In this document: positions 1,532 to 40,942 of the stretch, piece by piece
How the letters are laid out: the number at the start of each line of letters is the position of its first letter
Position numbering within the stretch: position 1 is the first letter of the stretch
Virus record (IMG/VR): IMGVR_UViG_2778261297_000003
From: a virus
Taxonomy: Duplodnaviria; Heunggongvirae; Uroviricota; Caudoviricetes
Strand: one strand, 5' to 3'
DNA: 45,246 bases
Notes under the pieces: model-generated
Told to the model about the DNA's origin: nothing
Seen by the model: only the letters and a program-made list of their open reading frames with translations
Database searches by the model: none
Position numbers and translations under genes: made by a program

Positions 1532-1585
1532 TGTTTTATCCCCTGCAAAAAGCAGAAAGCATGCCACTAGTGAGCAGAATGGTCA

Positions 1586-1611
1586 TTATCAAAAACGTTG
1601 GTTTGGGAGAA
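1586..1611. repeat. inversion crossover site, left (hix/gix-like) TTATCAAAAACGTTGGTTTGGGAGAA
   Basis: 26-bp site resembling hix/gix half-sites, 55 bp upstream of the invertase start; an inverted copy lies inside the tail-fibre gene at 3431-3456. Confidence 0.7.
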
Positions 1612-1932: not shown

Positions 1933-1934
1933 TT

Positions 1935-6533: not shown

Positions 6534-7615
6534 GTATTGAATCCCGCCAGGTTCTGGTAGAAGGCATATGGCTGAACGGCGAATGCTTCAGGCGGCATCA
6601 GCGTCATGCGTGCATGGGTGCCGTAGTCATCGCGCATATAGGTGACTTCTGCCAGTAGCAATTCAGTCTCCGGCAACCGTAAGGTGGGAAGATCAACGGG
6701 GATCAATGTGTTTGGTTCCCACAGTTTCCCGTCTTTATCCCGCCAGGAATCGATGGTTACCGAGAGCTGTTTTGAACGTCCGTACCGCCGGTTCATTTCC
6801 CAGTCGATCGCACTTTGTGCCTGTTGAGTAGCCATCAGGGTACTTTCCACAATCGATATATGTTTTCGGTACCGCATACGGGCGGCCTCCGGATCTCTCG
6901 CCGTTGCCAGAGTCACAGCGTCATAGGCCGTATCAGGCGAATACCCTGCAATTGGAGAAACGCTCATTGATACACCGACATAATCTGAAAACCTGTCAGC
7001 CATCGATTTGCGGTAGTATGCCTGCTCGACATTTACCCCTTCGGCTATCCCACTCGCCGCACGACGTGTTCCCACCCGGGTCAGTAACAGGTTTCCATCG
7101 GGCTGATCGTAGTAAAGCAGAGCAGACCATCTGGCCACCCGATCGATGACTTCTTGCGGAGACTCACCCCAGTTCAGAGTGAACTGGGGTACCTTCACAA
7201 GTTCATCAACATCCGTGGTTACGGTGATGCCGTAGTAGGATGCCAGGCGAGAAGCAATTTCAAGTGCATTACTGGCATTAATGACGTTGTTAGGCCACTC
7301 AGCTGAGCAATCCACCAGGTCCTGACATTTGCTCCTGCCCGTGGCGCGGACCTCATGGCGGGAGCGCGATAGTGCGGGTTCCCAGTCATCAACATATCCC
7401 GTCAGTGTCAGATCATCTCCGATACGAACTTCACAAGACATTCCCTCTTCAACGAGTTGACGATCTTCGTTGCCAGGGAAGTAATCCATTAGCCCAAGAT
7501 CGAAATCAGAGGGAAAACGCTCAATACCCCGCGTTACCCGGACAGAATCCCACCCCTCGATGATTTTGCCGTCGACCGTCAAAGAAACAACATCCAGATC
7601 GCTGTCTGCATTCAT
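6530..7615 (-). CDS. tail protein (Mu P / gp44-like, baseplate hub)
   Basis: 361-aa ORF downstream of the DNA circularization-like gene, Mu-like order. Confidence 0.7.
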   Translation of the reverse strand: MNADSDLDVVSLTVDGKIIEGWDSVRVTRGIERFPSDFDLGLMDYFPGNEDRQLVEEGMSCEVRIGDDLTLTGYVDDWEPALSRSRHEVRATGRSKCQDLVDCSAEWPNNVINASNALEIASRLASYYGITVTTDVDELVKVPQFTLNWGESPQEVIDRVARWSALLYYDQPDGNLLLTRVGTRRAASGIAEGVNVEQAYYRKSMADRFSDYVGVSMSVSPIAGYSPDTAYDAVTLATARDPEAARMRYRKHISIVESTLMATQQAQSAIDWEMNRRYGRSKQLSVTIDSWRDKDGKLWEPNTLIPVDLPTLRLPETELLLAEVTYMRDDYGTHARMTLMPPEAFAVQPYAFYQNLAGFNT

Positions 7616-9018
7616 TGCCTCAGTACCTTCATGGTTGTCGGCATAAACGCCGGATGCGGTACGCGCGCTTCCTGTACCAGTTCATCTGCACGGGTGGCAT
7701 CCTGGTATAATCGGTTTGCCAGCGTCAGCGCCGGAAGCGGCTGAGCGGTAGTAACCTGCAGAAGCTCGCTCAGACCAGAAGCACGCTCACTCATCGTAGA
7801 AAGGAATGCCGATCTGACGGCGAGAAGCGCGTTATACATATCATCGTCCGCGCGGTCTCCAGCCAGAACCAGCGCCGTATCAAGTTGCACAGAAACTCGT
7901 TGAGTTAACTCTTCTGCCTCGTCTGTACTGGCTGGTCTGGAGTCCGCAGCGGCACTGGTCATGGCACCAGTACATAGCACAACAATCAGCGTGTTCATGG
8001 TCGCCGAAATCGCTTTGCTGCTGTCGGACTGCTGGTACTCCGTGCTGATTGAATTAGCCAGTTTTTCCAGCGCTGTGATTCGGTCATTAACGCTGCCGGC
8101 GCTGTTAAGAATTGCGTTTACCACGTCGGCGACGCCCTGGACAAACTCATCAGGTGTGTTGGAGCTGCTAAGCTGGCTCGACCTGTCGGTAACATTTTTC
8201 CGGTCCATTACCGACTGGGCTGTTACCTTGTCAGCCAGTGCTCTCTCATCATCCACATCAGCAACTGACGATTTGCCAGCAACAGCAGAGGAACTACCGC
8301 CCACAGAGCCTTTACTGTAACGTCCGTACCGGGTATTCCCGAACGTGGAGTTCAGGACATTGCTGAGATTCGTGACCTGACTGATGGTGCTGTCAACCAT
8401 GTTAGTCCAGAACGTGACCGTGCCTCTGATGGTGTTTATAGCCTGTGTGACACCGCGGATTTCACTCTTAACCCTGGCAATCGTGCTCAGCACAGCAGTG
8501 CTGACCAGTTTCAGATAGTTGGTTTTCACCGTGGCGCCTGCAACGGTACTGCCCGTGACAGCAAACACTTTAAGCCCTGATTCAATTGCCATCAGGGTAA
8601 ATTCAAATACTCGCCCGTTCTCCATCGAACCGGAAATACGCAAACCATTCTCAGGGATGGAAACCGTTAATTCGCCCAGTGTCGGATGGACAAGCGTACC
8701 GCTACCTTTTTGTTCACAGGCTTCAATCAGTGACTGGCGCTGCGTGATAGCATCGCCGCCGCCGTAAACCTGGCTGTTCTGGATCAAGAAACCGCGAATA
8801 ACAAATCGCCGTGTTGCCCGCCCGATATCCTCTATCCAGGCTGTATCACGGTAGGGATATTCATGTACCGCCTGGCGTCGGCCGTGGCTCCCTTCCTCAG
8901 CAACAATTGCAAATGGCACACCTCTGAATGAGCTGGGCCGTAACTGCCCCTGCCAGTCATCGCTGGTATCTCCCCCCAAAAGAGAAGTTATTGCGTCCTG
9001 GATAATTGACGGCATCAC
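7612..9018 (-). CDS. DNA circularization protein N-like (Mu gp43-like)
   Basis: 468-aa ORF following the tape measure gene in the Mu-like tail order; GGAGG RBS. Confidence 0.7.
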   Translation of the reverse strand: MMPSIIQDAITSLLGGDTSDDWQGQLRPSSFRGVPFAIVAEEGSHGRRQAVHEYPYRDTAWIEDIGRATRRFVIRGFLIQNSQVYGGGDAITQRQSLIEACEQKGSGTLVHPTLGELTVSIPENGLRISGSMENGRVFEFTLMAIESGLKVFAVTGSTVAGATVKTNYLKLVSTAVLSTIARVKSEIRGVTQAINTIRGTVTFWTNMVDSTISQVTNLSNVLNSTFGNTRYGRYSKGSVGGSSSAVAGKSSVADVDDERALADKVTAQSVMDRKNVTDRSSQLSSSNTPDEFVQGVADVVNAILNSAGSVNDRITALEKLANSISTEYQQSDSSKAISATMNTLIVVLCTGAMTSAAADSRPASTDEAEELTQRVSVQLDTALVLAGDRADDDMYNALLAVRSAFLSTMSERASGLSELLQVTTAQPLPALTLANRLYQDATRADELVQEARVPHPAFMPTTMKVLRQ

Positions 9019-9027
9019 GCCTCCGGA

Positions 9028-9054
9028 AATAAAAAAACCGCCATGTCGGCGGTT
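9028..9054 (-). terminator. rho-independent terminator-like hairpin
   Basis: Minus strand reads ACCGCC-GACAT-GGCGGT followed by TTTTTTTATTT; sits immediately upstream of the N-like gene RBS. Confidence 0.5.
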
Positions 9055-9078
9055 TACATATGCACTGAAATGACTTAT

Positions 9079-9225
9079 CTATTTATCGCTGGATCCATTA
9101 CGGTCAAGAGATTCGGCGATCCTGTAAAGATGCTCAGTCGCCTTGAATGAGTTCATTAGGAACTCATAAAGCACACGTAAAAGCAATGCACTTACCACCG
9201 ATATCGTAATCGCCGTGAAATTCAT
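9079..9225 (-). CDS. small hydrophobic protein (48 aa), possibly part of an amber-interrupted longer frame 9079..9327
   Basis: MNFTAITISVVSALLLRVLYEF... with a predicted TM helix; an in-frame upstream ATG (9325-9327) with AAGGAAG RBS is followed by an in-frame TAG at 9292-9294. Confidence 0.3.
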   Translation of the reverse strand: MNFTAITISVVSALLLRVLYEFLMNSFKATEHLYRIAESLDRNGSSDK

Positions 9226-9358: not shown

Positions 9359-11218
9359 TCAGTAATTCATGGCCGTTGTTATTCTGCCATTATTTTCCGC
9401 ATTATAGGTTTTACGCTCCCCCTTATCATTGACCATCGTGATTTCAAGCTTGAGAGACTGATCGGACATGGCCTCCTTAAACGACCGCGCCAGATTTTCA
9501 CTAAGGGCAACTTCATCACTTTTCCCTTGTTGTGTTCTGAGTATCGTGGGTTCTTGATCCACGCCGCGTGATCCAGAGATAATGTCATACCGCTGCTGGG
9601 CCAGCACATCTGGATTTCTCTTCCCTGACCACCGATCATCAGTAATGGCGGTCTGGATGGCGTTTAGCAGTTGTTCCTCAGTATAAGGTTGTGCGCCATT
9701 CTCATGTTTAATCATAGCTGCCATTATCGTTTTTAATGTTTCCGGATCGTGCAGATTTACTTGCTCTTTGGCTCCATATCCAGTGGCTTTTGAGACGGAG
9801 TCAATATATGCACGAGTATTATTCTCTGATTGCGGAGCATAGGTATGAATAATCCCATCCAGAGTATTATTCCCCCTGTCACCATACAACATCAGCTGTC
9901 TCGCCATTGCAGTTCTTCCGTCGGCATCATTCGCAAAGGTAGAAAATCCGCCATTTTTACCCGTTGCGTTTGCTGCAACCCTCAAATTACCGGGATTATT
10001 ATTTCTGAAGCCAATTGCGTTATTCCTTGTTTCCCCGTAAGGAACATTGCCGCGTGCAACGTTGGATTGTGGCTGGCTGATAGCGGATAAGTCATTCTGC
10101 AATTGAATCGCAGAATCGGTCGCGCGGTAATTCGCATCGTACCGCTTTCTTACAGCATCAGTCATGAAACCCGCGTCAACCTGCCCACGTTCACTGCGGG
10201 GTAAGCTGTTATAAAGTTCCTTATCGTTCTGAATGCGCCGTAGTTTCTCAGCATCATTGCTGTTGATAAAACCGAGAGCATGAGACAGCCCAGTAAAATC
10301 ACCATTAGTGAACAGATCGGTAACACCTTCAAGGCCGTCTTTGACTGAACCATCCGAAAGAATGGTCTTAAGTGCCTTGTTTTTTGAACGTTGCCACAGA
10401 CCATCCCAGGATGCGCTGAGCTCATTCATAGTGCCGTTCACTTCACTCAATTGCTGATTTAGTGCCGGATCCACAGTCAGACCAAATTCATCCGATTTCG
10501 CCAGCAGCTTTTTCATGCGCTCACCGTCACGCATTAGCGCCAGCAATTCGGGCGTCAGCCCAAGTGCATCAGCGGCGGACTTCTGCTGTTCAGGTCGCAA
10601 GGTTGGAAAAATTTTTGCGATAGACTCCAGTGTTTTAAGGGTATTTACTGAACCATCGCTGTTTTTTTGGATTTGAGCACCAATTTGCGCCATCGCTGCC
10701 ATAACCCCCTCGTTTTTACCACTGGCAGCCTCATTGAATGCTTTGAAAATACCTTCTATTGATGCATTAGCGCTCTCGCTGTCTGCCCCAAGAATACGCA
10801 TTGCCCCGGAAAGTCGGGTAAAATCGTCAACGCGCATTCCCGCATTTTTTGCCGAGACATCAAGATTATAGGCCTGACGGGATGCCTCCCGAAATCCATA
10901 AGCGACCTGTTTCAGTCCGTAGCCGGCAGCACCGGCTAACCCCAGCGCCCCCATCTTCCCCGTGAGCTCCCCCACCATTTTCAGTGGGGGAACCATGTCG
11001 CCAATAAACTGCACGTTATCCCGCGCGCTCTTCGACATATTCTCGAGGCGAGAAATAAAACCGCTCAGTCCGTCGGCTGTTTCCTGACCGCCTAACTTGA
11101 GCCCTTCTTTAGTTTTATCTAGCTTCGGCTCCAGGTCACGGACAGCCTCATTAATGCGGTCTATAGCCTCGCTAACCTGGTCGCTGGCCACCAGCTCAAA
11201 ATCAAAAGAATTACTCAT
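9359..11218 (-). CDS. tail tape measure protein
   Basis: 619-aa ORF, Ala/Gly/Leu-rich and helical in character, located after the tail chaperone gene. Confidence 0.85.
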   Translation of the reverse strand: MSNSFDFELVASDQVSEAIDRINEAVRDLEPKLDKTKEGLKLGGQETADGLSGFISRLENMSKSARDNVQFIGDMVPPLKMVGELTGKMGALGLAGAAGYGLKQVAYGFREASRQAYNLDVSAKNAGMRVDDFTRLSGAMRILGADSESANASIEGIFKAFNEAASGKNEGVMAAMAQIGAQIQKNSDGSVNTLKTLESIAKIFPTLRPEQQKSAADALGLTPELLALMRDGERMKKLLAKSDEFGLTVDPALNQQLSEVNGTMNELSASWDGLWQRSKNKALKTILSDGSVKDGLEGVTDLFTNGDFTGLSHALGFINSNDAEKLRRIQNDKELYNSLPRSERGQVDAGFMTDAVRKRYDANYRATDSAIQLQNDLSAISQPQSNVARGNVPYGETRNNAIGFRNNNPGNLRVAANATGKNGGFSTFANDADGRTAMARQLMLYGDRGNNTLDGIIHTYAPQSENNTRAYIDSVSKATGYGAKEQVNLHDPETLKTIMAAMIKHENGAQPYTEEQLLNAIQTAITDDRWSGKRNPDVLAQQRYDIISGSRGVDQEPTILRTQQGKSDEVALSENLARSFKEAMSDQSLKLEITMVNDKGERKTYNAENNGRITTAMNY

Positions 11219-19917: not shown

Positions 19918-22047
19918 TTATTTCGGCAGGAGTTGCGATATTCGCTTACGTTTGACCGGCGCTGGTTCTTCAATAACCGCACCCGGCAGCTCGTAATTGA
20001 TTTTTTCTTCCTGTCCAACTGGCGCTGGCAGGAACTTATCCGGATCGGCTTCGAGGTTGGCGGCCCGGACGTTGAGTTTTAACCCCATATGTTTGAGACC
20101 GCACAGCGCGGCATAGCTGTAAACGAGGCAGTCAAGCGCTTCGTTAGCTCGTCCTGGTATTGCTTCCCAGATACTGTACCGCTGCCCGGAAATGACTTTG
20201 TAAACCAGTCGCTCCGCCAGCAGCTGATTGAAGTACCCGAGATCGCGATCGTCAGGAAAATGCATATAACCCGCAGCGGCGGCGCCAGGTTTGGGTGGCT
20301 CAAGATGCAGGCGACCGCGTATCACGTCTTTCGCTGAGTTAACCCCCAGAATGACAGGGCGGAAACTGGCTTTGCTTTTCGATGATGGTCGTTTGGTCGG
20401 CCAGACAGGATTGCGTTTACCTCCCTGTGCAGACTCCCCCTTAATTGCCCAGACACGACGGCCAAGACGCTCTTTGGCGAATTCGTATACCTTCTGCGTA
20501 TGGTGGCCACCGGAGTCCATGCACGTTGCCATGATATTCAGGCCGCGCCCGTCACCACGTCGCCAGATCTGTTTCAGGTATGCATCCAGTCGCTTCCAGG
20601 GTTCTTCCGTCTCAAGGTCACCATAAATAACGTCATGCGCGACCGACCACGATTCTTCATCTCTCCCCCAGCCGGTGATCGTAATTTCGAAGCGATCGTC
20701 CTGGGTATCAACTCCAGCTGTTAACAATGCCACCCCGTCCGGAACGACGGCCGGAAATATTTCCCGGCGCGCCAGCAGAACATCAACAGGGAGCTGTTTC
20801 CCATGATTAGGTCGGTGCGGAAGCCCCATCTGGGTATTCCACCACGCCTGTTCCTTATCCGGATCGCCCTTCGCATCGATATATTTTTTCGCAATATCCG
20901 ACGGCTTATCTTTTTGCCAGGGGCTGAAAAGCTTGGATGCCTGGTACCCCGCGTGGTGGTTATCGACTGCCTCCTTTCCACAGGAGGGGCAGATTGCGCG
21001 ATAGACCGCATGCCGTTCCGACTCTGACCATTGCCAGACCTTTTCAACGCTGCCCTCGTCTGCCGCCCGCCAGGCAAGGTCATAATCCATCAGCGGTGAG
21101 TGCCGCTCCCCGCAGCACTCAAATGGGCGCGTCTGATGCCATCGAATAGTGTGCAGAGCTCTGAGGCGCTGTCCTTCGGACCAGCCACTACCACAGCATT
21201 CGCAATAGAGCATCGCCGATTTAGTCAGGTGTTTATCTCCCTCTTTCGGCCACTGAACGTGTTTGAAAAAGTCGGGGAACTGGCGGTGGCCACAGTGCGG
21301 GCAAACCACAGATGCCCGGCGCTGATCGGAGTCGGCGTAGCTGTCAGCAATGCGGCTCTCATCCTCCACCGTCGGCGAACAGGCGCGTACAGACAGCCAG
21401 GTCAGGCCAAATGTCGCTGTACGCTCTTCGGCCAGCGCAATTGGATCGCCTTCGCGGGTTATCGGGTACTTGTCCACTTCATCCGCCAGCAGGACACGAA
21501 TCGGACGACGCGCAAGGTTATCAGGGCTACCAGCACCCGCCAGCGCCAGAAATCCGCCAGTGAATGCCTTGTAAAGAATGGTTTCTTTCGAGCTTTTCTG
21601 TTTCGAATCACCGATGATTTTACGCAGTACCGGCGTCACCCTTACCAGCGGGCTAATACGCTCTTTCGAAAACTGTTCAGCGGCTTCTTCTTTCGGCTGC
21701 AGCAGCAGTATCGGACAAGGATCGAGGTGGGCAAAATAGCCAAAAAGGTTTTCCAGCAGTGCTGTCTTCATCAACTGGGTACAGCACATTACAGTGATGA
21801 TATGAACCCCGGACTCCGTCGCGGCAAGCATCGGTCCGCGGGCAATTTCTACCGTCGATGTTTCCCAGTTTCCCGAAGTGCTCCCAGCCTCTTTTGCCAG
21901 CTTACGATAGTCATCTGCCCACTGCGGCACACTGATACGCGGCGGGGGTGTCCAGCCTTTGCGGACGCTTAATTCAAGACGCTCAATCTTCTGCCGGGTT
22001 AAACTCTGGCTCTCCGAGGACTGAGATGTGTTTGTGGACATGTTCAA
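19918..22047 (-). CDS. terminase large subunit (lambda gpA family)
   Basis: 709-aa ORF with ATPase region (..ILLLQPKEEAAEQFSKERI.., ..RVLLADEVDKYP..) and multiple Cys clusters as in gpA-type terminases. Confidence 0.9.
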   Translation of the reverse strand: MNMSTNTSQSSESQSLTRQKIERLELSVRKGWTPPPRISVPQWADDYRKLAKEAGSTSGNWETSTVEIARGPMLAATESGVHIITVMCCTQLMKTALLENLFGYFAHLDPCPILLLQPKEEAAEQFSKERISPLVRVTPVLRKIIGDSKQKSSKETILYKAFTGGFLALAGAGSPDNLARRPIRVLLADEVDKYPITREGDPIALAEERTATFGLTWLSVRACSPTVEDESRIADSYADSDQRRASVVCPHCGHRQFPDFFKHVQWPKEGDKHLTKSAMLYCECCGSGWSEGQRLRALHTIRWHQTRPFECCGERHSPLMDYDLAWRAADEGSVEKVWQWSESERHAVYRAICPSCGKEAVDNHHAGYQASKLFSPWQKDKPSDIAKKYIDAKGDPDKEQAWWNTQMGLPHRPNHGKQLPVDVLLARREIFPAVVPDGVALLTAGVDTQDDRFEITITGWGRDEESWSVAHDVIYGDLETEEPWKRLDAYLKQIWRRGDGRGLNIMATCMDSGGHHTQKVYEFAKERLGRRVWAIKGESAQGGKRNPVWPTKRPSSKSKASFRPVILGVNSAKDVIRGRLHLEPPKPGAAAAGYMHFPDDRDLGYFNQLLAERLVYKVISGQRYSIWEAIPGRANEALDCLVYSYAALCGLKHMGLKLNVRAANLEADPDKFLPAPVGQEEKINYELPGAVIEEPAPVKRKRISQLLPK

Positions 22048-22552
22048 TCAGCACCTCTGTCATCCTGTCCGCCGGTACATCCAGATCAGCAGCCATTAGC
22101 GGCGCCACCCTGGACGGCCAGTTAAGCCAGGCATCACGCTGTTGGCGAAAGGCGTTGAATAAAACCTCCTCGGCTGCTGTCAGCTCAATAAGCTGGCCGC
22201 TGTCTTTTTCATACTGCAGCTTTGCCTGCAGGGCCATGTAATTCTCGCGGATACGTCCCGCTTCCTCTCTCGAAAGATCTGCCCCTTCAGTGAGCATTAT
22301 CTGGCGGACAGTTTTATTGATTTCATCACCGTCATCATCGTTATCGCTAACGACGGGAGTTTTCTTTTTCTTCGCGTTCGAGGCGCGCGGGTCTTTGCCA
22401 TCGCGGTTTTTCTTCAATGCCGCATCGCTGGCCTCTACGTCAATCAGGTCTCCGTCCATCACAATGAAGCGCCCGGCTTTAATCCACCGACCAATTGTTT
22501 TGCGATCCACACCTGAATGTTGTGCGTACTGACTCTGGTTCATCGTGGTCAT
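21983..22552 (-). CDS. terminase small subunit (Nu1-like)
   Basis: 189 aa; N-terminal HTH MNQSQYAQHSGVDRKTIGRWIKAG resembles Nu1; overlaps the large subunit start. Confidence 0.75.
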   Translation of the reverse strand: MTTMNQSQYAQHSGVDRKTIGRWIKAGRFIVMDGDLIDVEASDAALKKNRDGKDPRASNAKKKKTPVVSDNDDDGDEINKTVRQIMLTEGADLSREEAGRIRENYMALQAKLQYEKDSGQLIELTAAEEVLFNAFRQQRDAWLNWPSRVAPLMAADLDVPADRMTEVLIEHVHKHISVLGEPEFNPAED

Positions 22553-22791: not shown

Positions 22792-23433
22792 CTATCTGGC
22801 CGAGCTGATCGCCTCAGCAATCGCCTGGTGCAGCGCTGAGGGTAACAATGCGTTGGCCATGGTGTTTGCCCTGTCCATATAGCCGAGCGTTGGTTTGACT
22901 GGAAGCGCGTCTCCAAACCGAATAAGCAATTTTGGTGCAGGTTGCTTAATCTTGTCTCTGCGCGTGCCGTTCGGAGAACGTTTTGCCCGTTTCTTCCCTT
23001 TTTTGGTTTTCGGCTTTTTTCTCTGCCACACGGCATTCACGCCACCAACGTCACCAATAAATACGTTTGGCTTTGCTTTGAGCTGAGAGAGCTTATTACG
23101 CGGCAGGTTGCCGTATTTATTAAGCTTTATGTCTTTCGGGTTAAGCAAAGCACCACCATTAAGCTTGTGCGCTCCGCCGAACTCGAAGGGTTCAAGGTAG
23201 CCAGCAGCAGTATCACGAACAAACACCTTCGCACGAAGGCTGTTTTTCCTGGCACCAACTGACCCTACCGATTTAACTGTAAAAGGTGTTGGATTATCCA
23301 GATTCTGCTCAAATGCTGTTTTTTGGGCCGCTTCTATCTGGCGAACCACTTTAGTCATAGCCTGGGCAGTCGCAAACGGTATTTGCTTCTGCAGCTGTCT
23401 TAACTGACTGGAAAGGTCCTTAAGCGTTGCCAT
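22792..23433 (-). CDS. hypothetical protein with basic K/R-rich segment
   Basis: About 213 aa from MATLKDLSS (AGGTGG RBS); K/R-rich stretch RKKPKTKKGKKRAKR; no family recognised. Confidence 0.5.
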   Translation of the reverse strand: MATLKDLSSQLRQLQKQIPFATAQAMTKVVRQIEAAQKTAFEQNLDNPTPFTVKSVGSVGARKNSLRAKVFVRDTAAGYLEPFEFGGAHKLNGGALLNPKDIKLNKYGNLPRNKLSQLKAKPNVFIGDVGGVNAVWQRKKPKTKKGKKRAKRSPNGTRRDKIKQPAPKLLIRFGDALPVKPTLGYMDRANTMANALLPSALHQAIAEAISSAR

Positions 23434-23486
23434 ATCATTGACCACCTAGTTACAGTAATTAAGATCAGTTTGCTCATAAAGTTGAC

Positions 23487-23510
23487 AATAAAAAACCGCC
23501 CGTAGGCGGT
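23487..23510 (-). terminator. rho-independent terminator
   Basis: Minus strand CCGCC-TAC-GGGCGG followed by TTTTTTATTG, overlapping the stop of the upstream ORF. Confidence 0.55.
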
Positions 23511-23794
23511 TAGTCGAACATTTTATCAAGTTGCTTAGCAAGAGCTCGGTTAAACAGCTCCTTCGAAACTGTCATCAGCGTGCCCATACTGGCATCTTTG
23601 AATCCGGTTTTTAATGTTGCCCAAACCTCTTTGTTACGGAGAGCATCCAAGAAGTCATGCCCCATCGCGGTCAATCGCAAGGGCATTACAGCCCAGTGAG
23701 TCATTCCGTCTAAAGACTGAATAGCACCAAAGCCGGGCTCTCCATCACTCCTGATAATCAGCCCTCTATCCTCAAGCAAACGCATATGAAACAC
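23510..23794 (-). CDS. hypothetical protein (94 aa from GTG; same frame continues upstream to an ATG at 23912-23914 across one TAG)
   Basis: Track ORF starts at GTG; an upstream in-frame ATG with GGAGGGG RBS is separated from it by a TAG at 23867-23869. Confidence 0.45.
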   Translation of the reverse strand: MFHMRLLEDRGLIIRSDGEPGFGAIQSLDGMTHWAVMPLRLTAMGHDFLDALRNKEVWATLKTGFKDASMGTLMTVSKELFNRALAKQLDKMFD

Positions 23795-23946
23795 AAATGT
23801 GTCAGTTTCACAATTGAACCCTAAATCATTTAATCGAATAATATCGGTATCAGGTGAATCCGATGCCTAGAAAGCCTCGAGCAAACCTTTAAGGTATTCT
23901 TGATCTATTTGCATAACCCCTCCGTATGTAAAAGGTTAATTTAACA

Positions 23947-24426
23947 TCAATTTAAGCACTGCTCTTTGATGTATTCCTGCAAATATCCAACCTGTTTCGT
24001 CACTGTGACGATTCGCTCTCTGAGGGTGAAATAATCCCGTTCAGCGGAGTCAGTAAGTCGGGGGCCGGTAACATCGCCCAGGCCGCCGGTGCTGGTCGCT
24101 CCGTTCGCGGGACATCTGGCGTTGACGTGCAGCCCACACTTGCCAGTGCGAACACAACGCTGCAAATCATCAAGCTGCTTTTTAGCATCAGCTAAGTCCT
24201 TCGTGTATTTGGCATCCAGCACCGCTGCATCACGCTGGCGGATCTGCATGTCTTTGATGGTGGCGTTCGCCTGGCTAAGATTCTTAATGGCTTTATCGCG
24301 CTGGTCTTTGTAGGTGATGGCGTTGCCGCGGTAGTGGTTAATCGCCCAGGCCATGGAAACCATCAGGCAGATAACGACAGCACAGATGATTGCTGTTAAT
24401 CGGCTCACTAATCTAACCCCCAACAC
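23947..24426 (-). CDS. Rz: i-spanin Rz
   Basis: 159 aa; N-terminal TM segment and strong similarity to lambda Rz (..[18 protein letters not shown].., ..[11 protein letters not shown]..). Confidence 0.85.
24000..24188 (-). CDS. Rz1: o-spanin Rz1 (embedded in Rz, +1 frame)
   Basis: 62-aa ORF wholly inside Rz; lipoprotein signal ..ALASVGC followed by a Pro-rich segment, like lambda Rz1. Confidence 0.75.
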
Positions 24427-25311: not shown

Positions 25312-26364
25312 TTATTCCCCTGTTAACGCCCTTATTTCCCCCACCGTCTGGCTAAACCTGTCCTTCTCGAGTTCAACGCCGATAGCCTGGCGGCCAAGTT
25401 CCAGCGCGATTTTCACGGTCGAACCGGACCCCATAAAGAAATCAGCCACCACATCACCAGGCTTACTGCTGGCGTTGATGATCTGCCGCAACATGTCAGC
25501 GGGTTTTTCGCATGGGTGTTTACCTGGGTAAAACTGAACGGGTTTATGTGTCCAGACGTCGGTATAAGGAACGGATACGGAAACAGAGAAATGCCGCCGA
25601 AGCGATTTGTACTCTTCGAGCAGCTCTGAATACTTGCGATTTAACGAATGCCACATAGCCACCAGCTGGTGGTGTGGTGTTGCCAGTTCGCCGTTCTGGT
25701 GCTTTTCGATGGCTACCTGCGTGAAAAGGGACTGAAGCTTCCGGTAGTCTGATTCATTCGGTAATTGCCACTGGCTACCGCTGAACCAGTGAGACACCAT
25801 GTTCTTCTTTCCAGTCGCATCGGCTATTTGTTTTGAGGTTATGCCAAGCGCTTCACGTGCATCCCGGAAATAAGAAATTAGGGGAGTCATTACATGCTGC
25901 TTCAGCTCGCTTCCCTTCTCAGCGTACCCGTCGCTCTTTGGTTTATACGGCCCCTGGTAATGCTCAGCGAACAGGATGCGCTCTGTTGCAGGGAAGTAAG
26001 AGCGCAGGCTCTCTTTATTACAGCCATTCCAGCGGCCCGACGGTTTAGCCCAGATGATGTGGTTCAGGACGTTGAACCGCTCACGCATCATGATCTCAAT
26101 GTCTGCCGCCAGACGGTGACCTGAGAAAAGATAAAGACTGCCGGCAGGTTTAAGCACTCGCCAGAATTGTGCGAGGCACATATCAAGCCAGCGAAGATAA
26201 TCCTCATCCCCTTTCCATTGATTGTCCCAGCCGTTGGGTTTCACTTTGAAGTACGGCGGATCCGTGACTATCAGGTCAATGAAGTTATCAGGGAGAGTTG
26301 CGATGTATTGCAGGCTATCAGCGTTGACTAACTCAACACTGTTTATATTTACAGTATTTTTCAT
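25312..26364 (-). CDS. DNA methyltransferase, beta-class (N6-adenine or N4-cytosine; DPPY motif)
   Basis: 350 aa; motif IV VTDPPY near the N-terminus and motif I FFMGSGST near the C-terminus. Confidence 0.8.
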   Translation of the reverse strand: MKNTVNINSVELVNADSLQYIATLPDNFIDLIVTDPPYFKVKPNGWDNQWKGDEDYLRWLDMCLAQFWRVLKPAGSLYLFSGHRLAADIEIMMRERFNVLNHIIWAKPSGRWNGCNKESLRSYFPATERILFAEHYQGPYKPKSDGYAEKGSELKQHVMTPLISYFRDAREALGITSKQIADATGKKNMVSHWFSGSQWQLPNESDYRKLQSLFTQVAIEKHQNGELATPHHQLVAMWHSLNRKYSELLEEYKSLRRHFSVSVSVPYTDVWTHKPVQFYPGKHPCEKPADMLRQIINASSKPGDVVADFFMGSGSTVKIALELGRQAIGVELEKDRFSQTVGEIRALTGE

Positions 26365-26582: not shown

Positions 26583-27482
26583 TTACGCGTTTCCAGGAGG
26601 GACATGCCAGACTCTTCGGCCATCCTCATGGTTCTCGATAATCTTGGCTGCTGTACTGCCACCAAAAGTGTGCATATAGCTATGATGTATCGTTAACACA
26701 ATATCTTGTAATGCCTGATCTGCTTCCATCGGTATGATTTTCAAACCAATTTGGCTAGCTTTATCACTGTGAATATGACGTGCATGAGCAAAAGTTGAAC
26801 TGTGGTTATTCAGGCTTGAACAAATAGCTTCAGCCTTTTGCTGGGCATCTGGATCCCCATCAAACATACCAGTAATTAGCCATTCACTGACAATTGTTGT
26901 TGCCCATTGGATTGCCTTTTCACACTCACCAATGAACGTCGGATTGAGTTTAGACAGTGTAAATTGCCAATACGCAGCAGTCGCAGGGTTTTTAATAATA
27001 TCTTGCATAGCCTTCTGCGCTTCTTCAATCACGCCATGTGCTGGCACGCCACCGATTTGGGGATCGAAAGGACCGATATTTGATTGTTTCCCCATGATGA
27101 TTTCTTTTGCACAACAAGCCAACATAGTCCCTGCTGACATAGATATCATGGGGACAAAAGCACGGATATCGTTACCGAACTTAGCTCTCAAGTAATAACC
27201 TATCGATTCTAAGGCGGCGATATCCCCACCAGGTGTATGCAAAATGAGATCAAGCCCCTTCGTGGCATCGAGCCCATGAACCGCTGTCATGAATCCATTT
27301 TTATCATCATCAGACATAGTGCATAAATGCGAGCTATTCTGAAGGAACCCCGAGTAGTACGCAATGACGTTACGTCCGGTCATCTGCGACATCTCTTTGA
27401 TATATTTGCTTCTTACTGTGTCTAGGGGGCTTTTTTGGGCGAGGACTGCAACCTCGCCCATAACATGATTCCAATTAGGCAT
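26583..27482 (-). CDS. Clp/crotonase-fold serine protease (S49/SDH-like), accessory
   Basis: 299 aa; ..LILHTPGGDIAALESIGYYL.. and ..ISMSAGTMLACCAKEIIMG.. resemble ClpP/SppA-fold serine peptidases; family assignment from memory. Confidence 0.55.
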   Translation of the reverse strand: MPNWNHVMGEVAVLAQKSPLDTVRSKYIKEMSQMTGRNVIAYYSGFLQNSSHLCTMSDDDKNGFMTAVHGLDATKGLDLILHTPGGDIAALESIGYYLRAKFGNDIRAFVPMISMSAGTMLACCAKEIIMGKQSNIGPFDPQIGGVPAHGVIEEAQKAMQDIIKNPATAAYWQFTLSKLNPTFIGECEKAIQWATTIVSEWLITGMFDGDPDAQQKAEAICSSLNNHSSTFAHARHIHSDKASQIGLKIIPMEADQALQDIVLTIHHSYMHTFGGSTAAKIIENHEDGRRVWHVPPGNA

Positions 27483-27496
27483 TGTTCATCTTATTG

Positions 27497-27706
27497 TTAG
27501 TATGAATACAGTTGGTACGATGCATTTCCTTGTTGATTGTAATCAACATTTTCCAGGTGAGAACCTGTCGAATAAATCACACCTTTTTGCCCAGAACCAA
27601 CTGATGAGGTACTCATTACTCTGCGACCAAAATCAGTTGCTGTTTCGTTTGGCAAAAATTCTGCGGGGGTGATACCAAAATCGTCATAAAGCTGGTTTAT
27701 GTTCAT
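27497..27706 (-). CDS. small protein (69 aa) co-transcribed with the serine protease
   Basis: ATG at 27704-27706 with GGAGAG RBS; 14-nt gap to the protease start; no recognisable family. Confidence 0.5.
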   Translation of the reverse strand: MNINQLYDDFGITPAEFLPNETATDFGRRVMSTSSVGSGQKGVIYSTGSHLENVDYNQQGNASYQLYSY

Positions 27707-30613: not shown

Positions 30614-32551
30614 TCAGGCGGCTGCACCCGCCTTTTGATTTGCACATAATTCAGGAAGATTTGCTTCTACCAGCGCACGAGCGAACGGCGGCGGTACTGC
30701 GTTACCACAGCGCGCTACCTGCTTGTCTTTGGCGTAACGATTGCCGCGATAGTCCTGATCGATAACGTAGCCGTCAGGGAAGCCCTGCGCCTTATAAAGC
30801 TCATGCGGTTGCAGCATGCGCATTCCGATATCGACGATCTGGTACTTAACCCCCTCGATCGTCACCAGCCATTCATCCTCGCTATCACCGCAGTAGGTTT
30901 CGAGGAATGTCCGGACCTCGCCAACGTGCTGGCCACCAGCGGTAATCGTCGGCATAGGTGTATCCATGGTCTGACCGTCGCTGCAGGTTCCGCGCAGCTT
31001 CACCAGGTGCGACGCAACTACCGCGTGGTGATCAACAGTAGTGACTGAGTGGGCAGGCTCATCCATACCAACACCCGGCCCCGTGTAATTCCCACCATAG
31101 TGCTTCGCCAGGAACGCGCTCACCGTTGCAAACTTATTACCACCAGCAGTGACCGTGCCGAGCGGGTTATTCAGTTGAAGAACACGCGGTTCTTGCCCTG
31201 GGCGTTCGCCGTACCCCATCTGGATCAGTGTTGGAGTTACCAGCTGCGACTTACCGCCACCACCTGCAGTAATCGTCGCACTCGGTTCGTCAGCCCTGTG
31301 CCCAACACTGGCTCCAAACTGGCGGGCGATGACCGGCGCAACCACGCACGCGCGGGACTGCTTGAGGATTGTATGAGCGGGTTTATCCAGCGGGCGCGGC
31401 TTTGCCTGGTACTCACTGCCGCCATTGCCAGCCAGGAACGGTGTCAGGGCGGCCTCAACTACGCCAAGCGCATGCCCATTCCCGCCCGGGCGCGCCGACG
31501 TACCAGCGGTGACAGTTGGTACCGGCTCGGTCACTGGCTGCCCGGTGGCCCCGGTGCGGAATTTAGTAAGATGCGGTACCGCCAGTGCGTAGCCATGCTT
31601 TTTAGTGATGGTCTGCAATGGCTCTAACAACGATTGCCCGCGGAAACAGTCATAACCTCCTTTCGTCGTGGTGTGGTTACACTTCACGATGAAAGGTGAT
31701 GCGCTTTCGATAACAAAGCGCTGGATGCCGCGCGCGATACGTTTGAGCGTATTTTCCGCCAGCGGCTTTTTGCGGTCGAAGATGGACCGGGCCGGGATAT
31801 TCCAGTCAATGCACTCCGCCGCGGTACGCCATGGCGCCAGCTTGCCGCTTTGTACTTCCAGTGATTTTGGATCCCCATGAGTCGCTTCAGGCCAATGAAT
31901 CTTGCGGCCGTCACAGCGCATGACCATGAAGAAACGCTTTCTGATCGTCGGCGCGCCGTAGTCACATGCGCGCAGCTCCCGATAATCAACCTCATAACCA
32001 AGCCCGGCGATCAGCTGTTGCGCCTGCTGGCCGTGCGGCTCAATGGCAAGGAATTCACAAACCTCAGCCAGCGCAGGGTGATTCGCCGCGATCCCCGTCG
32101 ACAGCATGCCGACAAATGCCTCGAATGTTTCGCCAGCACGCTCAGGATCTGGGCGTAATTCTTCATCCAGCAGCGGGCCCCATGTCTTAAACTCTTCGAC
32201 GTTCTCCAGCATCATGACGCGGGGACGTACTGCCAGCGCCCAGCGCAGGACAATCCACGCCAGCCCGCGAATCTCTTTCTTAACCGGCTTAGCGCCCTTC
32301 GCCTTGGAAAAGTGGCGGCAGTCAGGGCTAAACCAGGCCAGACCGACAGGTTTACCGCTGGTGGCTGCGCTTGGGTCAACGTCAAACACCGACTCGCAAT
32401 AATGCAGCGTGTCAGGGTGATTCGTCTTATGCATCGCAATAGCGTTTTCGTCGTGGTTGATAGCGATATCCACGCTACGCCCGATCGCCAGTTCAATGCC
32501 GGTACTCGCGCCGCCGCCACCAGCAAAGTTATCAACGATAATTTCACGCAT
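30614..32551 (-). CDS. DNA (cytosine-5)-methyltransferase, large, with repeated TRD-like modules
   Basis: About 645 aa from MREIIVDNFAGGGGAS (motif I); SPDC..FS.AKG (motif IV-like), MLENV (motif VI), RKRFFMV (motif VIII), CGNAV (motif X); four TxTAGG-containing repeats between motifs VIII and X. Confidence 0.8.
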   Translation of the reverse strand: MREIIVDNFAGGGGASTGIELAIGRSVDIAINHDENAIAMHKTNHPDTLHYCESVFDVDPSAATSGKPVGLAWFSPDCRHFSKAKGAKPVKKEIRGLAWIVLRWALAVRPRVMMLENVEEFKTWGPLLDEELRPDPERAGETFEAFVGMLSTGIAANHPALAEVCEFLAIEPHGQQAQQLIAGLGYEVDYRELRACDYGAPTIRKRFFMVMRCDGRKIHWPEATHGDPKSLEVQSGKLAPWRTAAECIDWNIPARSIFDRKKPLAENTLKRIARGIQRFVIESASPFIVKCNHTTTKGGYDCFRGQSLLEPLQTITKKHGYALAVPHLTKFRTGATGQPVTEPVPTVTAGTSARPGGNGHALGVVEAALTPFLAGNGGSEYQAKPRPLDKPAHTILKQSRACVVAPVIARQFGASVGHRADEPSATITAGGGGKSQLVTPTLIQMGYGERPGQEPRVLQLNNPLGTVTAGGNKFATVSAFLAKHYGGNYTGPGVGMDEPAHSVTTVDHHAVVASHLVKLRGTCSDGQTMDTPMPTITAGGQHVGEVRTFLETYCGDSEDEWLVTIEGVKYQIVDIGMRMLQPHELYKAQGFPDGYVIDQDYRGNRYAKDKQVARCGNAVPPPFARALVEANLPELCANQKAGAAA

Positions 32552-33878
32552 TGACGGCCCCCTGCATGCTGTTGAAGAGACCACCAGCGGTCGTGATAAT
32601 TTCACTCGTCGGCATACGTTCGAGCCACAGCTGGTTGATATTGGCTTTCAGCTTGTTCTGCTGCGAAACAGGTAGAGCGTCAGCCCCTTCAATCTGGTTA
32701 AACACCAGTCCAACCTCAAGAGGCCAAACGCGCGATTCGTTTAACGCCTTGTCCTTTGATTCCTGCGTCTCACGGACATGGGCGCGGATCCCCCGAATAT
32801 TTGACCATTTGGCTTTATCCAGGCTTTCCATGGTCGCGATGAATTCACTGTGGTTAATGCCGTATTCTTTCGCAGACTCAACGGCAACCGTGCGTAACCG
32901 CTCTGACATGTCTTGTTTCACGTCATCGCTATCAAAGGGCAATGTTTCCAGCCATGCATTAACACCCACCAGGATGCTCTCGCTGATCAGCTTTTTCGCT
33001 CTGTCGATCGTCAGCGGTGAAACATTGGTAAATTCAGGGTTTTCCAGAGAGTCGGCAGCCCAGGTATGACCAAACTTTGACTCGCTGAAGGTGTACTCGT
33101 CTTTCTTGCCGAACGCCGCGACAACACAGGCCCAAGCCTCTACACCGCTGGTTTCCAGAATGGCTTTTTGGGTTAATGGCAGTTCTGCCTCTGATTTCTC
33201 CGGCACTACCTCAGCGTCCAGCTCCGGCGCCGCATCAGTTTGCGTTCTTCCCACGGCAAATTGGGCCAGCGACATCGCAGCACGGCCTTTGGCCTCCAGG
33301 TCGGTGCGGTTGATGTAACTGAAACGCTCACCCCGCCATGTTTTGTCGAAGACCACGATAGCGCCAGCAAAAAATGCGCTGGTGGGCTGCTGCTTTTCGT
33401 CTTTCGGCACGAACCATGTAGGAAGATCGAAACCAATTCGGCCACGGATGAATGTGACGTGATCTGCCTCTTCCGGCCACCACGTCTCACTCGTCGCAGA
33501 CTTAATGAGAAAAACGTACCGTCCACCCTTTTCTCGCATTGCCATAGCGTGGTTAATGATGTGGGTCATTCCGGTAACGGCCTGCTTGTCGTGGTACTGA
33601 GAGCGGCTGTAAGGCGGGTTGCCAAACCCGGCACCACCGAGTTCTGCCAGACGCTCTGACCAATCCTGCGTCAGGGCATTATTTTCAGCCGTGTACCAGG
33701 TTGGGCACTTCGCGTTGCTGTCGTCGGCAAAAAGGTCCAACACCAGAGGGCCGAACATCGCATTGATACCCCAAAACAACAGATCCGGAGTGCGCCATTG
33801 ATCGCCGACCTCTTTCAACTCATGGGCTGGTTTTGAACGCAGTTCAGCCAGCGCGCGGCAGTATTTGCTTTCAATCAT
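32544..33878 (-). CDS. phage Dam-type N6-adenine methyltransferase (NPPY) fused to a 270-aa C-terminal domain of unknown function
   Basis: N-terminal region WRTPDLLF...GFGNPPYS matches phage Dam family; C-terminal extension has no recognised motifs. Confidence 0.7.
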   Translation of the reverse strand: MIESKYCRALAELRSKPAHELKEVGDQWRTPDLLFWGINAMFGPLVLDLFADDSNAKCPTWYTAENNALTQDWSERLAELGGAGFGNPPYSRSQYHDKQAVTGMTHIINHAMAMREKGGRYVFLIKSATSETWWPEEADHVTFIRGRIGFDLPTWFVPKDEKQQPTSAFFAGAIVVFDKTWRGERFSYINRTDLEAKGRAAMSLAQFAVGRTQTDAAPELDAEVVPEKSEAELPLTQKAILETSGVEAWACVVAAFGKKDEYTFSESKFGHTWAADSLENPEFTNVSPLTIDRAKKLISESILVGVNAWLETLPFDSDDVKQDMSERLRTVAVESAKEYGINHSEFIATMESLDKAKWSNIRGIRAHVRETQESKDKALNESRVWPLEVGLVFNQIEGADALPVSQQNKLKANINQLWLERMPTSEIITTAGGLFNSMQGAVNA

Positions 33879-36661: not shown

Positions 36662-36690
36662 TCCCTTCCCGCTCTTCCTCTAAGCATCAA

Positions 36691-36742
36691 GCTAAGTTTA
36701 GTTTGATGTTTCACTTGACCAACAAACTAAGTTAAGTTAGAT
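36691..36742. promoter_or_regulatory. OL-like operator cluster downstream of cI
   Basis: GCTAAGTTTAGTTTGAT (36691-36707) and AACTAAGTTAAGTTAGAT (36725-36742) repeat the OR half-site motif CTAAG/CTTAG. Confidence 0.5.
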
Positions 36743-36862
36743 TTTTTCTGTCGACACCAAACCACCGCGCCTGATGTGGTTAAAAGCAGGCCAAAGCATT
36801 ATGAAGTGATCCCTGTTCTGGCTGTTCACTTCCCATGAGGGTGACAGCCAGCTTTTTAAGGG

Positions 36863-36942
36863 CACAACGTGAAAGCGCACTCCATCAACTATCGGTTGTG
36901 GATGACAGGTAAGTAAACAGGCGGAGTGCGCTTCCAGTTGTG
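36863..36942 (+). repeat. structured element A (about 19-bp stem, 39-nt loop) in the untranslated leader
   Basis: 5' arm CACAAC-G-TGAAAGCGCACTCC pairs with 3' arm GGAGTGCGCTTCC-A-GTTGTG. Confidence 0.5.
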
Positions 36943-37205
36943 ATGAATTGCAGCCCTTTGAGGCAACCAGAAGATAAGCACCTGGCGTCACAGCACTATT
37001 GAACATGGCGAAAGCCGAAAGACTTGAAGGCGGTTTTCTCAGGTTGCGCGCTAAAGAATAGCGGGGAGAACCTGGGGCGGAGAGCAAACCCCGCGATGCA
37101 GGACTTGAAATACCTCACAGACCAATAAGCCGTCTGGCAGCGTAACTGCCCTTTACATCAGCCCCGGCGAGGTGGCGCCGCCGGACCGGGGCTGGTGAAT
37201 CGCAA

Positions 37206-37281
37206 CACAACATGAAAGCGCATTCCTCTTTTCACTGATGGGGATCGGTTTGTTACCTGGCGGAGTGCGCTTCCAGTTGTG
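37206..37281 (+). repeat. structured element B (second copy of element A with a G-U-compatible substitution)
   Basis: Same arms as element A (CACAAC-A-TGAAAGCGCATTCC ... GGAGTGCGCTTCC-A-GTTGTG); a C to T change yields a G.U wobble; loop differs but keeps ATCGGTT and a ..GGC junction. Confidence 0.5.
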
Positions 37282-37619
37282 GTAATGCGGCTCTGCGCAC
37301 GTGACGAGGCCAACAAGTTTTTATTTCAACTTTTGAAATGAATACGTTTCTTGTGGTGTAGCGTCGCCGGTTCTGGCCGGTCCGGCAGGTGGAGGCACCA
37401 CCGCCACAACAACATCATTGCTGTGTGTAGTCTTTGCCCATCACATCGGTGGGCACCTTTTTTACACAAGAGACAAGGGCATCACCGGGCGACGGGCTCA
37501 TTCCCCAATCCACCCGGGCAAGAGGATAGCGATTGCAGTCGCCGACAAATGCAGGTGCCCTTCTCTGTTGTGTATGGAGAAAGTTCGGCGGTGGCAGCCG
37601 CCATAACGAGGGTAAAACC

Positions 37620-40272: not shown

Positions 40273-40426
40273 CAGTCCATACACTGAAGCAATGCCGCCC
40301 GGACCAAGAAGAAGCGCATGACTGGCGCTGACTGGCTGACAGCGATTGAGATGTACAAACCAACTGTGCGCATCGTGGAAGTTAATGTGCCACGCGCCGC
40401 TGGCATTCGCATCAAAGGAGAGTGAT

Positions 40427-40942
40427 ATGGCGTTAACACACCGCGAACTCTGTCAGATTGCGTACAAGTTCCTTAAGCGCAACGGGTTCAAGGTTTGTTT
40501 TCATGACCGCTTTATAGCTGTAACCAGTACCGGAGAACAGCCAGATGCTATGGGATTCAGAAATTCAGCATCATGCCTGATAGAGGCGAAGTGTTCTCGT
40601 GCTGACTTGTTGGCAGATAGAAAAAAGCGTTTCCGTAAAAATCCCTCACTTGGCATGGGCGACTGGCGATTCTTTATTAGTGAGCCGGGAATTATTTCAG
40701 TTGAGGATTTACCTCCCGGCTGGGGATTACTTCACGTTGTTAACGGAAGAGTACGGAAAGTACATGGGTGGCCCAAGGGTAATTGCTGTTGGGGTAATCC
40801 TGACGATAAGCCATTTACTGGAAATAAGCAGGTTGAATGCGATTACATGTTATCTGCATTAAGGCGCATGGAGTTGAGAGGGCACCTTAATGAAATATAT
40901 GACGGTGTAATTGTTAATAAGAAAGAAGGAAACGCGGCATGA
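40427..40942 (+). CDS. PD-(D/E)xK nuclease-fold protein (putative)
   Basis: 171 aa from MALTHREL (AAAGGAGAG RBS); candidate motif ..GEQPDAMGF..(n)..LIEAKCS (PD...EAK). Confidence 0.45.
   Translation: MALTHRELCQIAYKFLKRNGFKVCFHDRFIAVTSTGEQPDAMGFRNSASCLIEAKCSRADLLADRKKRFRKNPSLGMGDWRFFISEPGIISVEDLPPGWGLLHVVNGRVRKVHGWPKGNCCWGNPDDKPFTGNKQVECDYMLSALRRMELRGHLNEIYDGVIVNKKEGNAA

Follow-up and report, generated by a model that had tools for sequence, protein, structure and literature searches.

In-frame TAG codons are met with in phage genomes in several settings. In phages that have reassigned TAG to glutamine, such as the crAss-like, Lak, Garnet and Topaz phages (10.1101/2021.08.26.457843; PMC9523058), they occur in a host that itself keeps the standard code. 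Reading the stop as sense raises the coding density of recoded phages by >10%, a gain that also serves as the criterion of recoding for contigs of 5–100 kb; in-frame stops are present in 26–71% of their genes and are concentrated in the structural and lysis genes, and about 40% of TAG-recoded phages encode a suppressor tRNA (10.1101/2021.08.26.457843). The amber (sus) mutants of laboratory genetics, which are propagated on supE or supF hosts, offer GAG to TAG changes in a temperate coliphage, two per genome, and fall in essential genes. Programmed read-through of the Qβ A1 type needs a stop codon that is conserved among orthologues and followed by an extension under constraint. Finally, in ordinary prophage gene decay, a dispensable gene that is not part of the core functions of the phage acquires a premature stop by a single-base change, and near-identical intact alleles are known.

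The gene considered here occupies positions 23510–23914 on the minus strand of the window, by which we mean the whole stretch of 45,246 nucleotides that was analysed, and comprises 134 codons and a stop, with an amber codon at codon 16. From its translation, its Pfam and PHROG matches and its homologues, we conclude that it is very probably a loss-of-function allele of a prophage accessory (‘moron’) gene. All the elements described in an earlier note on this DNA were found on the minus strand: a Shine–Dalgarno sequence, GGAGGGG (23917–23923), precedes the ATG at 23912–23914, codons 1–15 are MQIDQEYLKGLLEAF, codon 16 is TAG (23867–23869), and the same frame then continues to the TAA at 23512–23510. 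Codons 17–43 (23786–23866) are stranded between the TAG and the first in-frame ATG, at which begins the 91-residue remnant ORF annotated by RefSeq as WP_001515593.1 (23510–23785, minus strand); a GTG at 23794, separated from the TAG by 24 in-frame codons, opens a 94-residue version of the same remnant. The cassette is closed by an intrinsic terminator (23494–23511, minus strand), AACCGCC-TACG-GGCGGTT, with a 7-bp stem containing five G–C pairs, a 4-nt loop and a following T-run.

The low G+C content noted earlier for this cassette was also evident on measurement, at 0.40–0.45 over about 23250–24000 compared with 0.50–0.59 on either side. Directly upstream of the DUF2513 gene lies an Rz-type lysis gene (23947–24408, minus strand; RefSeq), and on the other side, on the same strand, lies a gene of 213 codons, its constant companion, which matches PHROG 1924 and bears the label ‘minor tail protein’ (22792–23433; PHROG and RefSeq). 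The packaging genes then follow, with the small terminase subunit (21983–22552; PHROG and RefSeq) and the large one, such that the cassette stands, as had been proposed, between lysis and packaging functions.

The short upstream ORF and the 94-residue ORF are two halves of one gene, as had been suspected, because both are homologous to a single family of 134-residue proteins. The read-through translation scored 39.5 bits against Pfam DUF2513 (PF10711), for which the gathering cutoff is 29.6, and the 94-residue remnant scored 35.7 bits; PHROG 585, a profile of 128 positions, matched residues 1–131 of the read-through protein. Among 5.8 billion proteins searched, 114 homologues were found, nearly all of about 134 residues and aligned over their full length from residue 1, the closest being two proteins of 134 residues (P0001 and P0002) with 99 and 90% identity. 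In an alignment with 25 homologues, again from residue 1, the mean column identity was 73%. Codons 1–15, and the 27 that separate the TAG from Met44, are thus conserved coding sequence in the family alignment, in which the TAG occupies the column of a nearly invariant glutamate, Glu16. Membership of DUF2513 was supported by the sequence score and by collinearity, and the ORF is interrupted by the TAG at codon 16; the window copy is a family member by sequence, and not an intact one.

The intact protein was modelled with AlphaFold (pLDDT 92.8, pTM 0.84), which places helices at residues 5–17, 25–30 and 38–49, a four-stranded wing at residues 53–81, and three further helices at residues 83–93, 95–104 and 110–133. 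The predicted order of elements, H1–H2–H3–wing followed by C-terminal helices, is that of the MarR, PadR and HxlR regulators, and the top Foldseek matches were overwhelmingly to regulators of these types. The matches were weak, however, with a best E-value of 0.018 (MarR, 3bpx), probabilities up to 0.95 and TM values of 0.35–0.50; no Foldseek match to the model reached E ≤ 0.001, and a profile search of the PDB sequences returned no relative, so that, unlike in the members of those families, the resemblance has no sequence-level match to a solved structure behind it and DNA binding is predicted only. The intact protein is probably a small winged-helix cargo protein, with DNA binding predicted from the modelled fold. 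The PADLOC defence models gave no match, our literature search for DUF2513 found no mention from which a function could be transferred, and no near-identical DNA of the gene was found in the phage collection. Homologues do occur in phages: Klebsiella phage ST846-OXA48phi9.2 has one at the corresponding site, flanked by lysis genes and terminase, and Escherichia phage Chlobot has another near its integrase. Such differing sites are as expected for a mobile moron.

The codon that preceded the TAG could be read from close relatives. A prophage of E. coli EC09 matches that of the window at 100% identity over 24 kb, and the prophage of a mussel isolate of E. coli ST536, O21:H9, differs from it at five of 45,246 positions; the 601-bp region around the gene is present in 22 complete E. 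coli genomes, as four identical copies and others of 99.3–99.8% identity. Between strain AW1.7 and the window, the 481 aligned nt contain one difference, which makes the codon GAG in AW1.7 instead of TAG. GAG is also found at codon 16 in ECCWS199, EM18-18-42, ECONIH4 and a Shigella-type contig, and the codon is GAG or GAA in 79 of 80 IMG/VR loci, with none a stop (the 80th locus matched only in part, and its register could not be established). The orthologous codon at this position, which the earlier note had proposed to identify, is therefore one for glutamate, in the IMG/VR loci and in four near-identical E. coli copies alike. The change is G to T on the coding strand, or C to A at position 23869 on the plus strand.

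Neither did the relatives bear out the possibility that orthologues begin at the internal GTG or ATG and that the upstream ORF is fortuitous. They begin at the upstream ATG: in AW1.7, ECCWS199, EM18-18-42 and ECONIH4, RefSeq annotates an intact CDS of 405 nt from that same ATG, encoding the 134-residue WP_001165319.1. The Shine–Dalgarno sequence is the same in the intact alleles, with the sole exception of ECONIH4, in which one base is changed. A search with a degenerate pattern for TAG or TAA at codon 16 gave no match in IMG/VR or in the GTDB representatives, and in the JGI metagenomes it returned only two contigs, both with the TAG allele of the window.

The TAG sits within CTAGG, and a CAG in CCAGG is the classical amber hotspot of lacI. 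We rejected this Dcm/Vsr hotspot as the direct route to the stop, because the nearest relatives have GAG rather than CAG and the change is G to T, not the C to T of a 5-methylcytosine. A two-step path from GAG through CAG to TAG is still conceivable; among the relatives compared, none had a CAG intermediate at codon 16.

A difference of one base from the intact alleles is also what a sequencing or assembly error would give, in which case the TAG would be absent from the real DNA. The same TAG is nevertheless present in independent complete genomes, namely ABWA45 (from Switzerland), EC09 and the mussel ST536 strain (from Portugal), and in several ENA, Logan and JGI assemblies whose samples are unrelated, which effectively refutes an error and leaves it with next to no probability.

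If the TAG is real, the ORF beyond it might still yield something useful. Translation could restart at the GTG at 23794 or the ATG at 23785 to give a C-terminal fragment of 91–94 residues, acting, for example, as a dominant-negative dimerization form; RefSeq calls the 91-residue CDS without a pseudogene flag in the TAG-bearing genomes, the fragment would retain the modelled wing and three C-terminal helices, and the ORF is open as far as the original stop and terminator. The starts themselves argue otherwise. The duplex with the anti-Shine–Dalgarno sequence was calculated at −10.0 kcal·mol−1 for the true start, against a median of −2.6 kcal·mol−1 at random positions, whereas the internal GTG and the ATG at 23785 gave +0.4 and +0.7 kcal·mol−1, respectively, and are without a Shine–Dalgarno sequence. 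They also lie 24–27 codons beyond the TAG, which is far for termination–reinitiation. In the model, codon 16 falls inside H1 and Met44 inside H3, and codons 17–43 encode the end residue of helix 1, helix 2 in full and the first part of helix 3; a product initiated at Met44 would enter the fold halfway through helix 3, without H1, H2 and half of H3, so that the winged-helix core could not form. The remnant ORF is still open because the mutation is recent, the allele having no other differences from the intact ones, and in one sub-lineage (P0063) the C-terminus is already frameshifted. We therefore consider a functional truncated product to be very unlikely. The annotation of the two interrupted genes of the window is uneven, in that RefSeq flags the gene at 321–560 as having an ‘internal stop’ and presents the DUF2513 remnant as a normal ‘DUF2513 domain-containing protein’ of 91 residues; WP_001515593.1 should be treated as a pseudogene remnant, and its annotation corrected accordingly.

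The gene at 321–560, on the minus strand, is the other amber-interrupted frame whose existence in this prophage had been asserted, and it is indeed present. It starts with an ATG at 560, runs for 50 codons to a TAG (410–408, codon 51) and continues for 28 further codons to a TAA at 323–321; PHROG 3893, a profile of 79 positions, covers residues 1–78 of its 79-codon read-through. A third case of the same kind, running from 9225 through a TAG at 9081 to 7614, was rejected: the upstream part is a separate ORF of 48 codons with its own terminator hairpin, and the gene after the TAG has its own ribosome-binding site and start.

Two in-frame TAG codons in a single prophage, in which TAG is also the rarest natural terminator (five of 58 genes), would be in keeping with a functional amber, that is, a TAG that is decoded by a suppressor tRNA of host or phage, by read-through in its context or by recoding, with the gene expressed at a low or conditional level and both ambers belonging to one regulatory scheme. 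The earlier note had, in the same vein, judged the pair unlikely to be a coincidence. For the 58 intact coding sequences of the window, we listed all single-base substitutions that give a stop, and found that TAG accounts for 41% of the possible nonsense changes at equal rates and for up to 49% with a transition bias. TAG is thus the commonest outcome of a random nonsense mutation in these genes, and the probability that two of two such mutations are both TAG is 0.17–0.24, so the argument from coincidence does not hold. That few genes end naturally in TAG is uninformative on stops made by mutation.

The distribution of the two ambers also speaks against a common scheme. Orthologues of the 321–560 gene of about 95% identity, in CX21, 1500, FEX669 and ECCRA-119, have GAG at the site of codon 51. 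The TAG of this gene is present in EC09, the mussel strain, ECONIH4, MSB1_9D and ABWA45, and the codon-16 TAG is present in EC09, the mussel strain and ABWA45; ECONIH4 has the first and not the second. Because the distributions differ and are nested, the two are separate mutations that arose one after the other, and the amber at 321–560 is an older, separate GAG to TAG change in another dispensable gene. Both ambers of the window arose in one context, TC-GAG to TC-TAG, possibly a sign of a mutational bias that depends on context.

No means of decoding the TAG came to light where we looked for one. ARAGORN found no tRNA gene in the window, and Rfam gave nothing above the gathering thresholds over the whole window. 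We read the Gln and Lys tRNA genes of the mussel ST536 host (serU, leuX, trpT and tyrU lay outside this reading), and their anticodons are wild type, CTG for glnX and glnV, TTG for glnU and glnW, and TTT for five Lys genes of the lysT family. Across 5426 complete E. coli genomes, the exact supF-type tRNA-Tyr(CUA) allele was found in none, and the exact supE-type tRNA-Gln(CUA) allele was found in 155; among the 60 matches listed for the latter, all are laboratory derivatives of K-12. The search for a suppressor that had been proposed earlier thus came out negative for both the window and the Gln and Lys anticodons of the host.

Recoding fares no better by its usual measures. When TAG is treated as sense (code 15), the coding density rises from 0.912 to 0.925, a gain of 1.3 points by a crude ORF-based estimate, compared with the >10% of recoded phages. 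In-frame TAG codons occur in two of about 60 genes, both of them cargo, and under the standard code no structural, lysis or packaging gene is interrupted. None of the features tested pointed to recoding of the stop, to suppression of the amber by the host or to a conserved read-through signal. The commonness of the allele and its spread over mosaic prophages, and the recurrence of TAG at codon 16 in a divergent lineage (see below), might be cited in favour of a functional amber. Set against them are the orthologues, which have GAG or GAA at this position and neither TAG nor CAG, the wild-type anticodons, and the frameshifts, deletions and insertion that the gene has suffered elsewhere in the population. 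Taken together, these results make a functional amber most improbable and lend no support to the purposeful ambers implied by the earlier note: the two stops are of separate origin, each at a glutamate codon, and no suppressor was found in the window or among the host genes read. For in-frame TAG codons in enterobacterial prophages in general, the codon in orthologues should be checked before recoding or suppression is invoked.

The preferred reading, a loss-of-function allele, was next to be reconciled with how widely the TAG is carried. Records of the exact 91-residue remnant come from 284 contigs, and those of the intact, otherwise identical, 134-residue protein from at least 1000. We confirmed the TAG in five genomic contexts (L020, L021, L023, L024 and L025), which represent four different holin/lysozyme/Rz cassettes, and in which the downstream 213-codon gene, terminase and head module are always the same. 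Across these contexts, the 46 nt that precede the start do not vary, the lysis cassettes differ, and ABWA45 and the window are 99.9% identical from 24407 down to 20400; on these alignments, the recombination boundary of the TAG-carrying module is placed in or before the Rz-type gene. The TAG allele has thus moved, by recombination, with a successful late-gene module, which implies that the DUF2513 gene is dispensable for the phage. The frequency of the allele exceeds that of a naive picture of a decaying gene, and hitch-hiking on the successful late module explains the spread.

The gene has also been damaged in other ways. Deletion fusions (P0116 and P0117), another N-terminal truncation (P0118), frameshifts (P0136 and L064) and an insertion involving an IS/antirepressor (L022) were found, and the P0063 variant, which combines the TAG-type start with the C-terminal frameshift, is the sole sub-variant of the allele with further decay. 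Because the TAG allele is otherwise identical to the intact alleles, relaxed selection after the mutation is not yet demonstrable. Four further pseudogene fragments lie in the window prophage, at 40309–41553.

The same stop recurs in one distant relative. The P0089 lineage (loci L026 and L027) belongs to a phage whose packaging module is of the Terminase_2 type and whose lysis genes are different; its DUF2513 gene, with 75.6% DNA identity to that of the window, likewise carries TAG as codon 16. We rejected recombination as the source of this TAG, because the identity between the two genes is flat, at 0.69–0.84 per 45 nt; on each side of the TAG, synonymous differences are reached within 5 nt, so that a conversion tract would have to be of 9 nt or less. 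From the sequence comparison, it would follow that the TAG of the P0089 lineage is of independent origin or old. A further homologue (P0114), considered as a third TAG lineage, was discarded, as its N-terminus is replaced by unrelated sequence.

Any of 50 substitutions would create a stop in the gene, and 19 of these fall in codons 1–43, where an early stop leaves a 91-residue ORF that searches can detect; on that basis, the chance that a second early nonsense change is identical to the first is about 1 in 19, or roughly 5%. The coincidence raises the question of whether the stop was favoured rather than neutral, either through selection for an early knockout of a costly or toxic gene or through a G to T hotspot in TC-GAG. 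In support of this, one could point to the shared context of the two window ambers, to the many independent lesions of other kinds and to the number of contigs from which the remnant is on record. Only two lineages carry the stop, however, no TAA is found at codon 16 in the many lineages with GAA, and intact alleles are still the majority; in addition, there is an ascertainment bias, since early stops leave a callable ORF of 91 residues and stops in the middle of the gene leave fragments that are easily missed. A favoured stop is therefore doubtful, if by some way the least improbable of the alternatives considered. It would be a refinement of the pseudogene explanation and is not opposed to it, and the recurrent stop itself is a minor curiosity.

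A more elaborate form of selection would make the codon-16 amber a recurrently selected attenuator, which holds the winged-helix protein to the trickle allowed by basal read-through of UAG. If this were true, the phage would have a tolerable dose of the protein, a one-step reversion from TAG to GAG and a switchable cargo gene that spreads well, and both the frequency of the allele across mosaics and the independent TAG in the 75.6%-identical lineage would be accounted for. We regard it as highly improbable.

The explanation that we prefer remains the loss of function of an accessory gene, and the course of events may be pictured as follows. The intact gene encodes a 134-residue DUF2513 protein, with a predicted winged helix and three C-terminal helices, from its own low-G+C cassette with a strong ribosome-binding site and terminator, set between the lysis and packaging genes of an E. 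coli prophage with a lambda-type head and a contractile tail. A single G to T change turned the conserved GAG of Glu16 into TAG; ribosomes that start at the true ATG would then stop after 15 residues, and the ORF of 91 or 94 residues, lacking a ribosome-binding site and H1, H2 and half of H3, would give essentially no functional protein. The gene being dispensable, the allele has persisted and has spread with the conserved late-gene module onto several lysis and early modules. Of this, the homology, the ancestral codon, the one-base difference, the distributions, the lack of suppressors where they were sought, the missing Shine–Dalgarno sequence at the internal starts and the modelled fold come from the analysis itself; that the allele yields no working product, and that it is neutral or slightly beneficial and not a functional form, we infer.

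The biological weight of the finding is small, in that one more prophage cargo gene has been lost by point mutation. It does, however, provide a natural pair of knockout and wild-type alleles, one base apart, which is convenient for finding the function of DUF2513.

When the locus is set beside the systems outlined at the outset, it shares with the recoded phages the proximity of its TAG to the lysis and structural region, in addition to the in-frame TAG in a standard-code host. It differs from them in having two affected genes, with one TAG in each, and no suppressor tRNA; in an ancestral residue that is glutamate where TAG is recoded to glutamine, with orthologues that keep a sense codon; and in its host, E. 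coli, compared with the Bacteroidota or Firmicutes hosts of those phages. The likeness to the sus mutants lies in the nature and number of the changes, but the hosts of the TAG allele are wild isolates, from mussels, a human and wastewater, the host examined has wild-type glnV and glnX, and both ambers lie in non-essential cargo rather than in essential genes. As for programmed read-through, the stop is absent from the intact orthologues and occurs in two lineages only. Ordinary prophage gene decay is the system that the locus matches: the other pseudogenes of this prophage and the other lesions of the gene are of a piece with it, and a nonsense-mutation pseudogene of a prophage cargo gene is already known in kind. 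Unlike a grounded, eroding prophage, that of the window looks otherwise complete and is probably still mobile, and its TAG allele is widespread across mosaics.

The amber codon in the DUF2513 gene is one of two in the window. The other (TAG at 410-408) interrupts a 79-codon PHROG 3893 gene on the minus strand (321-560), which is of unknown function and has DinI and UmuD-like genes as its neighbours. In both genes the change is GAG to TAG, and we found that the two stops (23867-23869 and 408-410) lie in one local context, TC-GAG becoming TC-TAG by a G to T transversion, which may reflect a context-dependent mutational bias. The TAG of the DUF2513 gene also newly forms CTAGG, a sequence recognised by Vsr/Dcm very-short-patch repair. 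The PHROG 3893 amber is common to the related prophages of the E. coli strains ECONIH4, MSB1_9D, ABWA45 and EC09 and of the mussel ST536 strain, and this distribution makes it older than the amber in the DUF2513 gene.

The codon-16 stop recurs in a divergent lineage, represented by two contig loci of the P0089 lineage (L026:2872-3276 and L027:1588-1992), in which the DUF2513 gene has a DNA identity of only 75.6% and the phage backbone is different (Terminase_2). The TAG nevertheless lies at exactly codon 16 (L026:2917-2919), as in the window. A recent transfer of the TAG allele to this lineage is ruled out by its diverged flanks, so the shared stop either arose in parallel or is an old polymorphism. 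An independent route to inactivation is seen in one metagenome contig (L022:1201-3603), where inserted DNA with an ISL3-family transposase and a gene resembling the P22 antirepressor divides the same DUF2513 gene near codon 28. In RefSeq, the 91-residue remnant downstream of the amber (23510-23785, minus strand) is entered like any normal protein under the name ‘DUF2513 domain-containing protein’ (WP_001515593.1), on record from 284 contigs, without a pseudogene flag; the flag ‘internal stop’ is given instead to the other amber gene (321-560).

Further damage is seen in the early-left region, where a cluster of four pseudogene fragments on the plus strand (40309-41553), comprising an ead/Ea22-like fragment, a hypothetical gene with a frameshift, a DUF551 gene without its C-terminus and a fragment without its N-terminus, indicates deletions and rearrangements. 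Adjoining the LexA-family repressor gene, about 960 bp (36662-37619) have no annotated feature, but each strand has ORFs 90-135 codons long, and the stretch may hold unannotated immunity-region genes or a regulatory RNA.

Three DNA methyltransferases are encoded by this single prophage, all on the minus strand, an unusually large investment in anti-restriction or epigenetic functions: an N6/N4-type enzyme immediately upstream of the lysis cassette (25312-26364), a cytosine methyltransferase of 645 residues (30614-32551) and an N6-adenine methyltransferase of 444 residues (32544-33878). The stretch between the Q antiterminator and the methyltransferase and lysis genes (26583-27706, minus strand) holds a 69-residue ORF and a gene for a Clp-fold serine protease of the SDH family; because the related contig L021 has a different gene, of 63 residues, in this slot, the position is one of variable cargo. 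An unannotated 48-codon ORF (9081-9225, minus strand) encodes a hydrophobic peptide that weakly matches DUF4282 and PHROG 12129. Located between a 619-residue tail gene (9359-11218) and the gene for DNA circularization (7612-9015), and followed by a separate terminator hairpin (about 9030-9055), it looks like a small moron within the tail operon.

Finally, a serine recombinase gene (971-1531) adjoins a segment of about 1.8 kb that is flanked by 24-nt inverted repeats (1589-1612 and 3432-3455, 92% complementary) and contains tail-fibre C-terminal and tail-fibre-assembly genes in opposite orientations. The layout of the whole region (971-3729) matches that of an invertible host-range switch of the Gin/Cin type.
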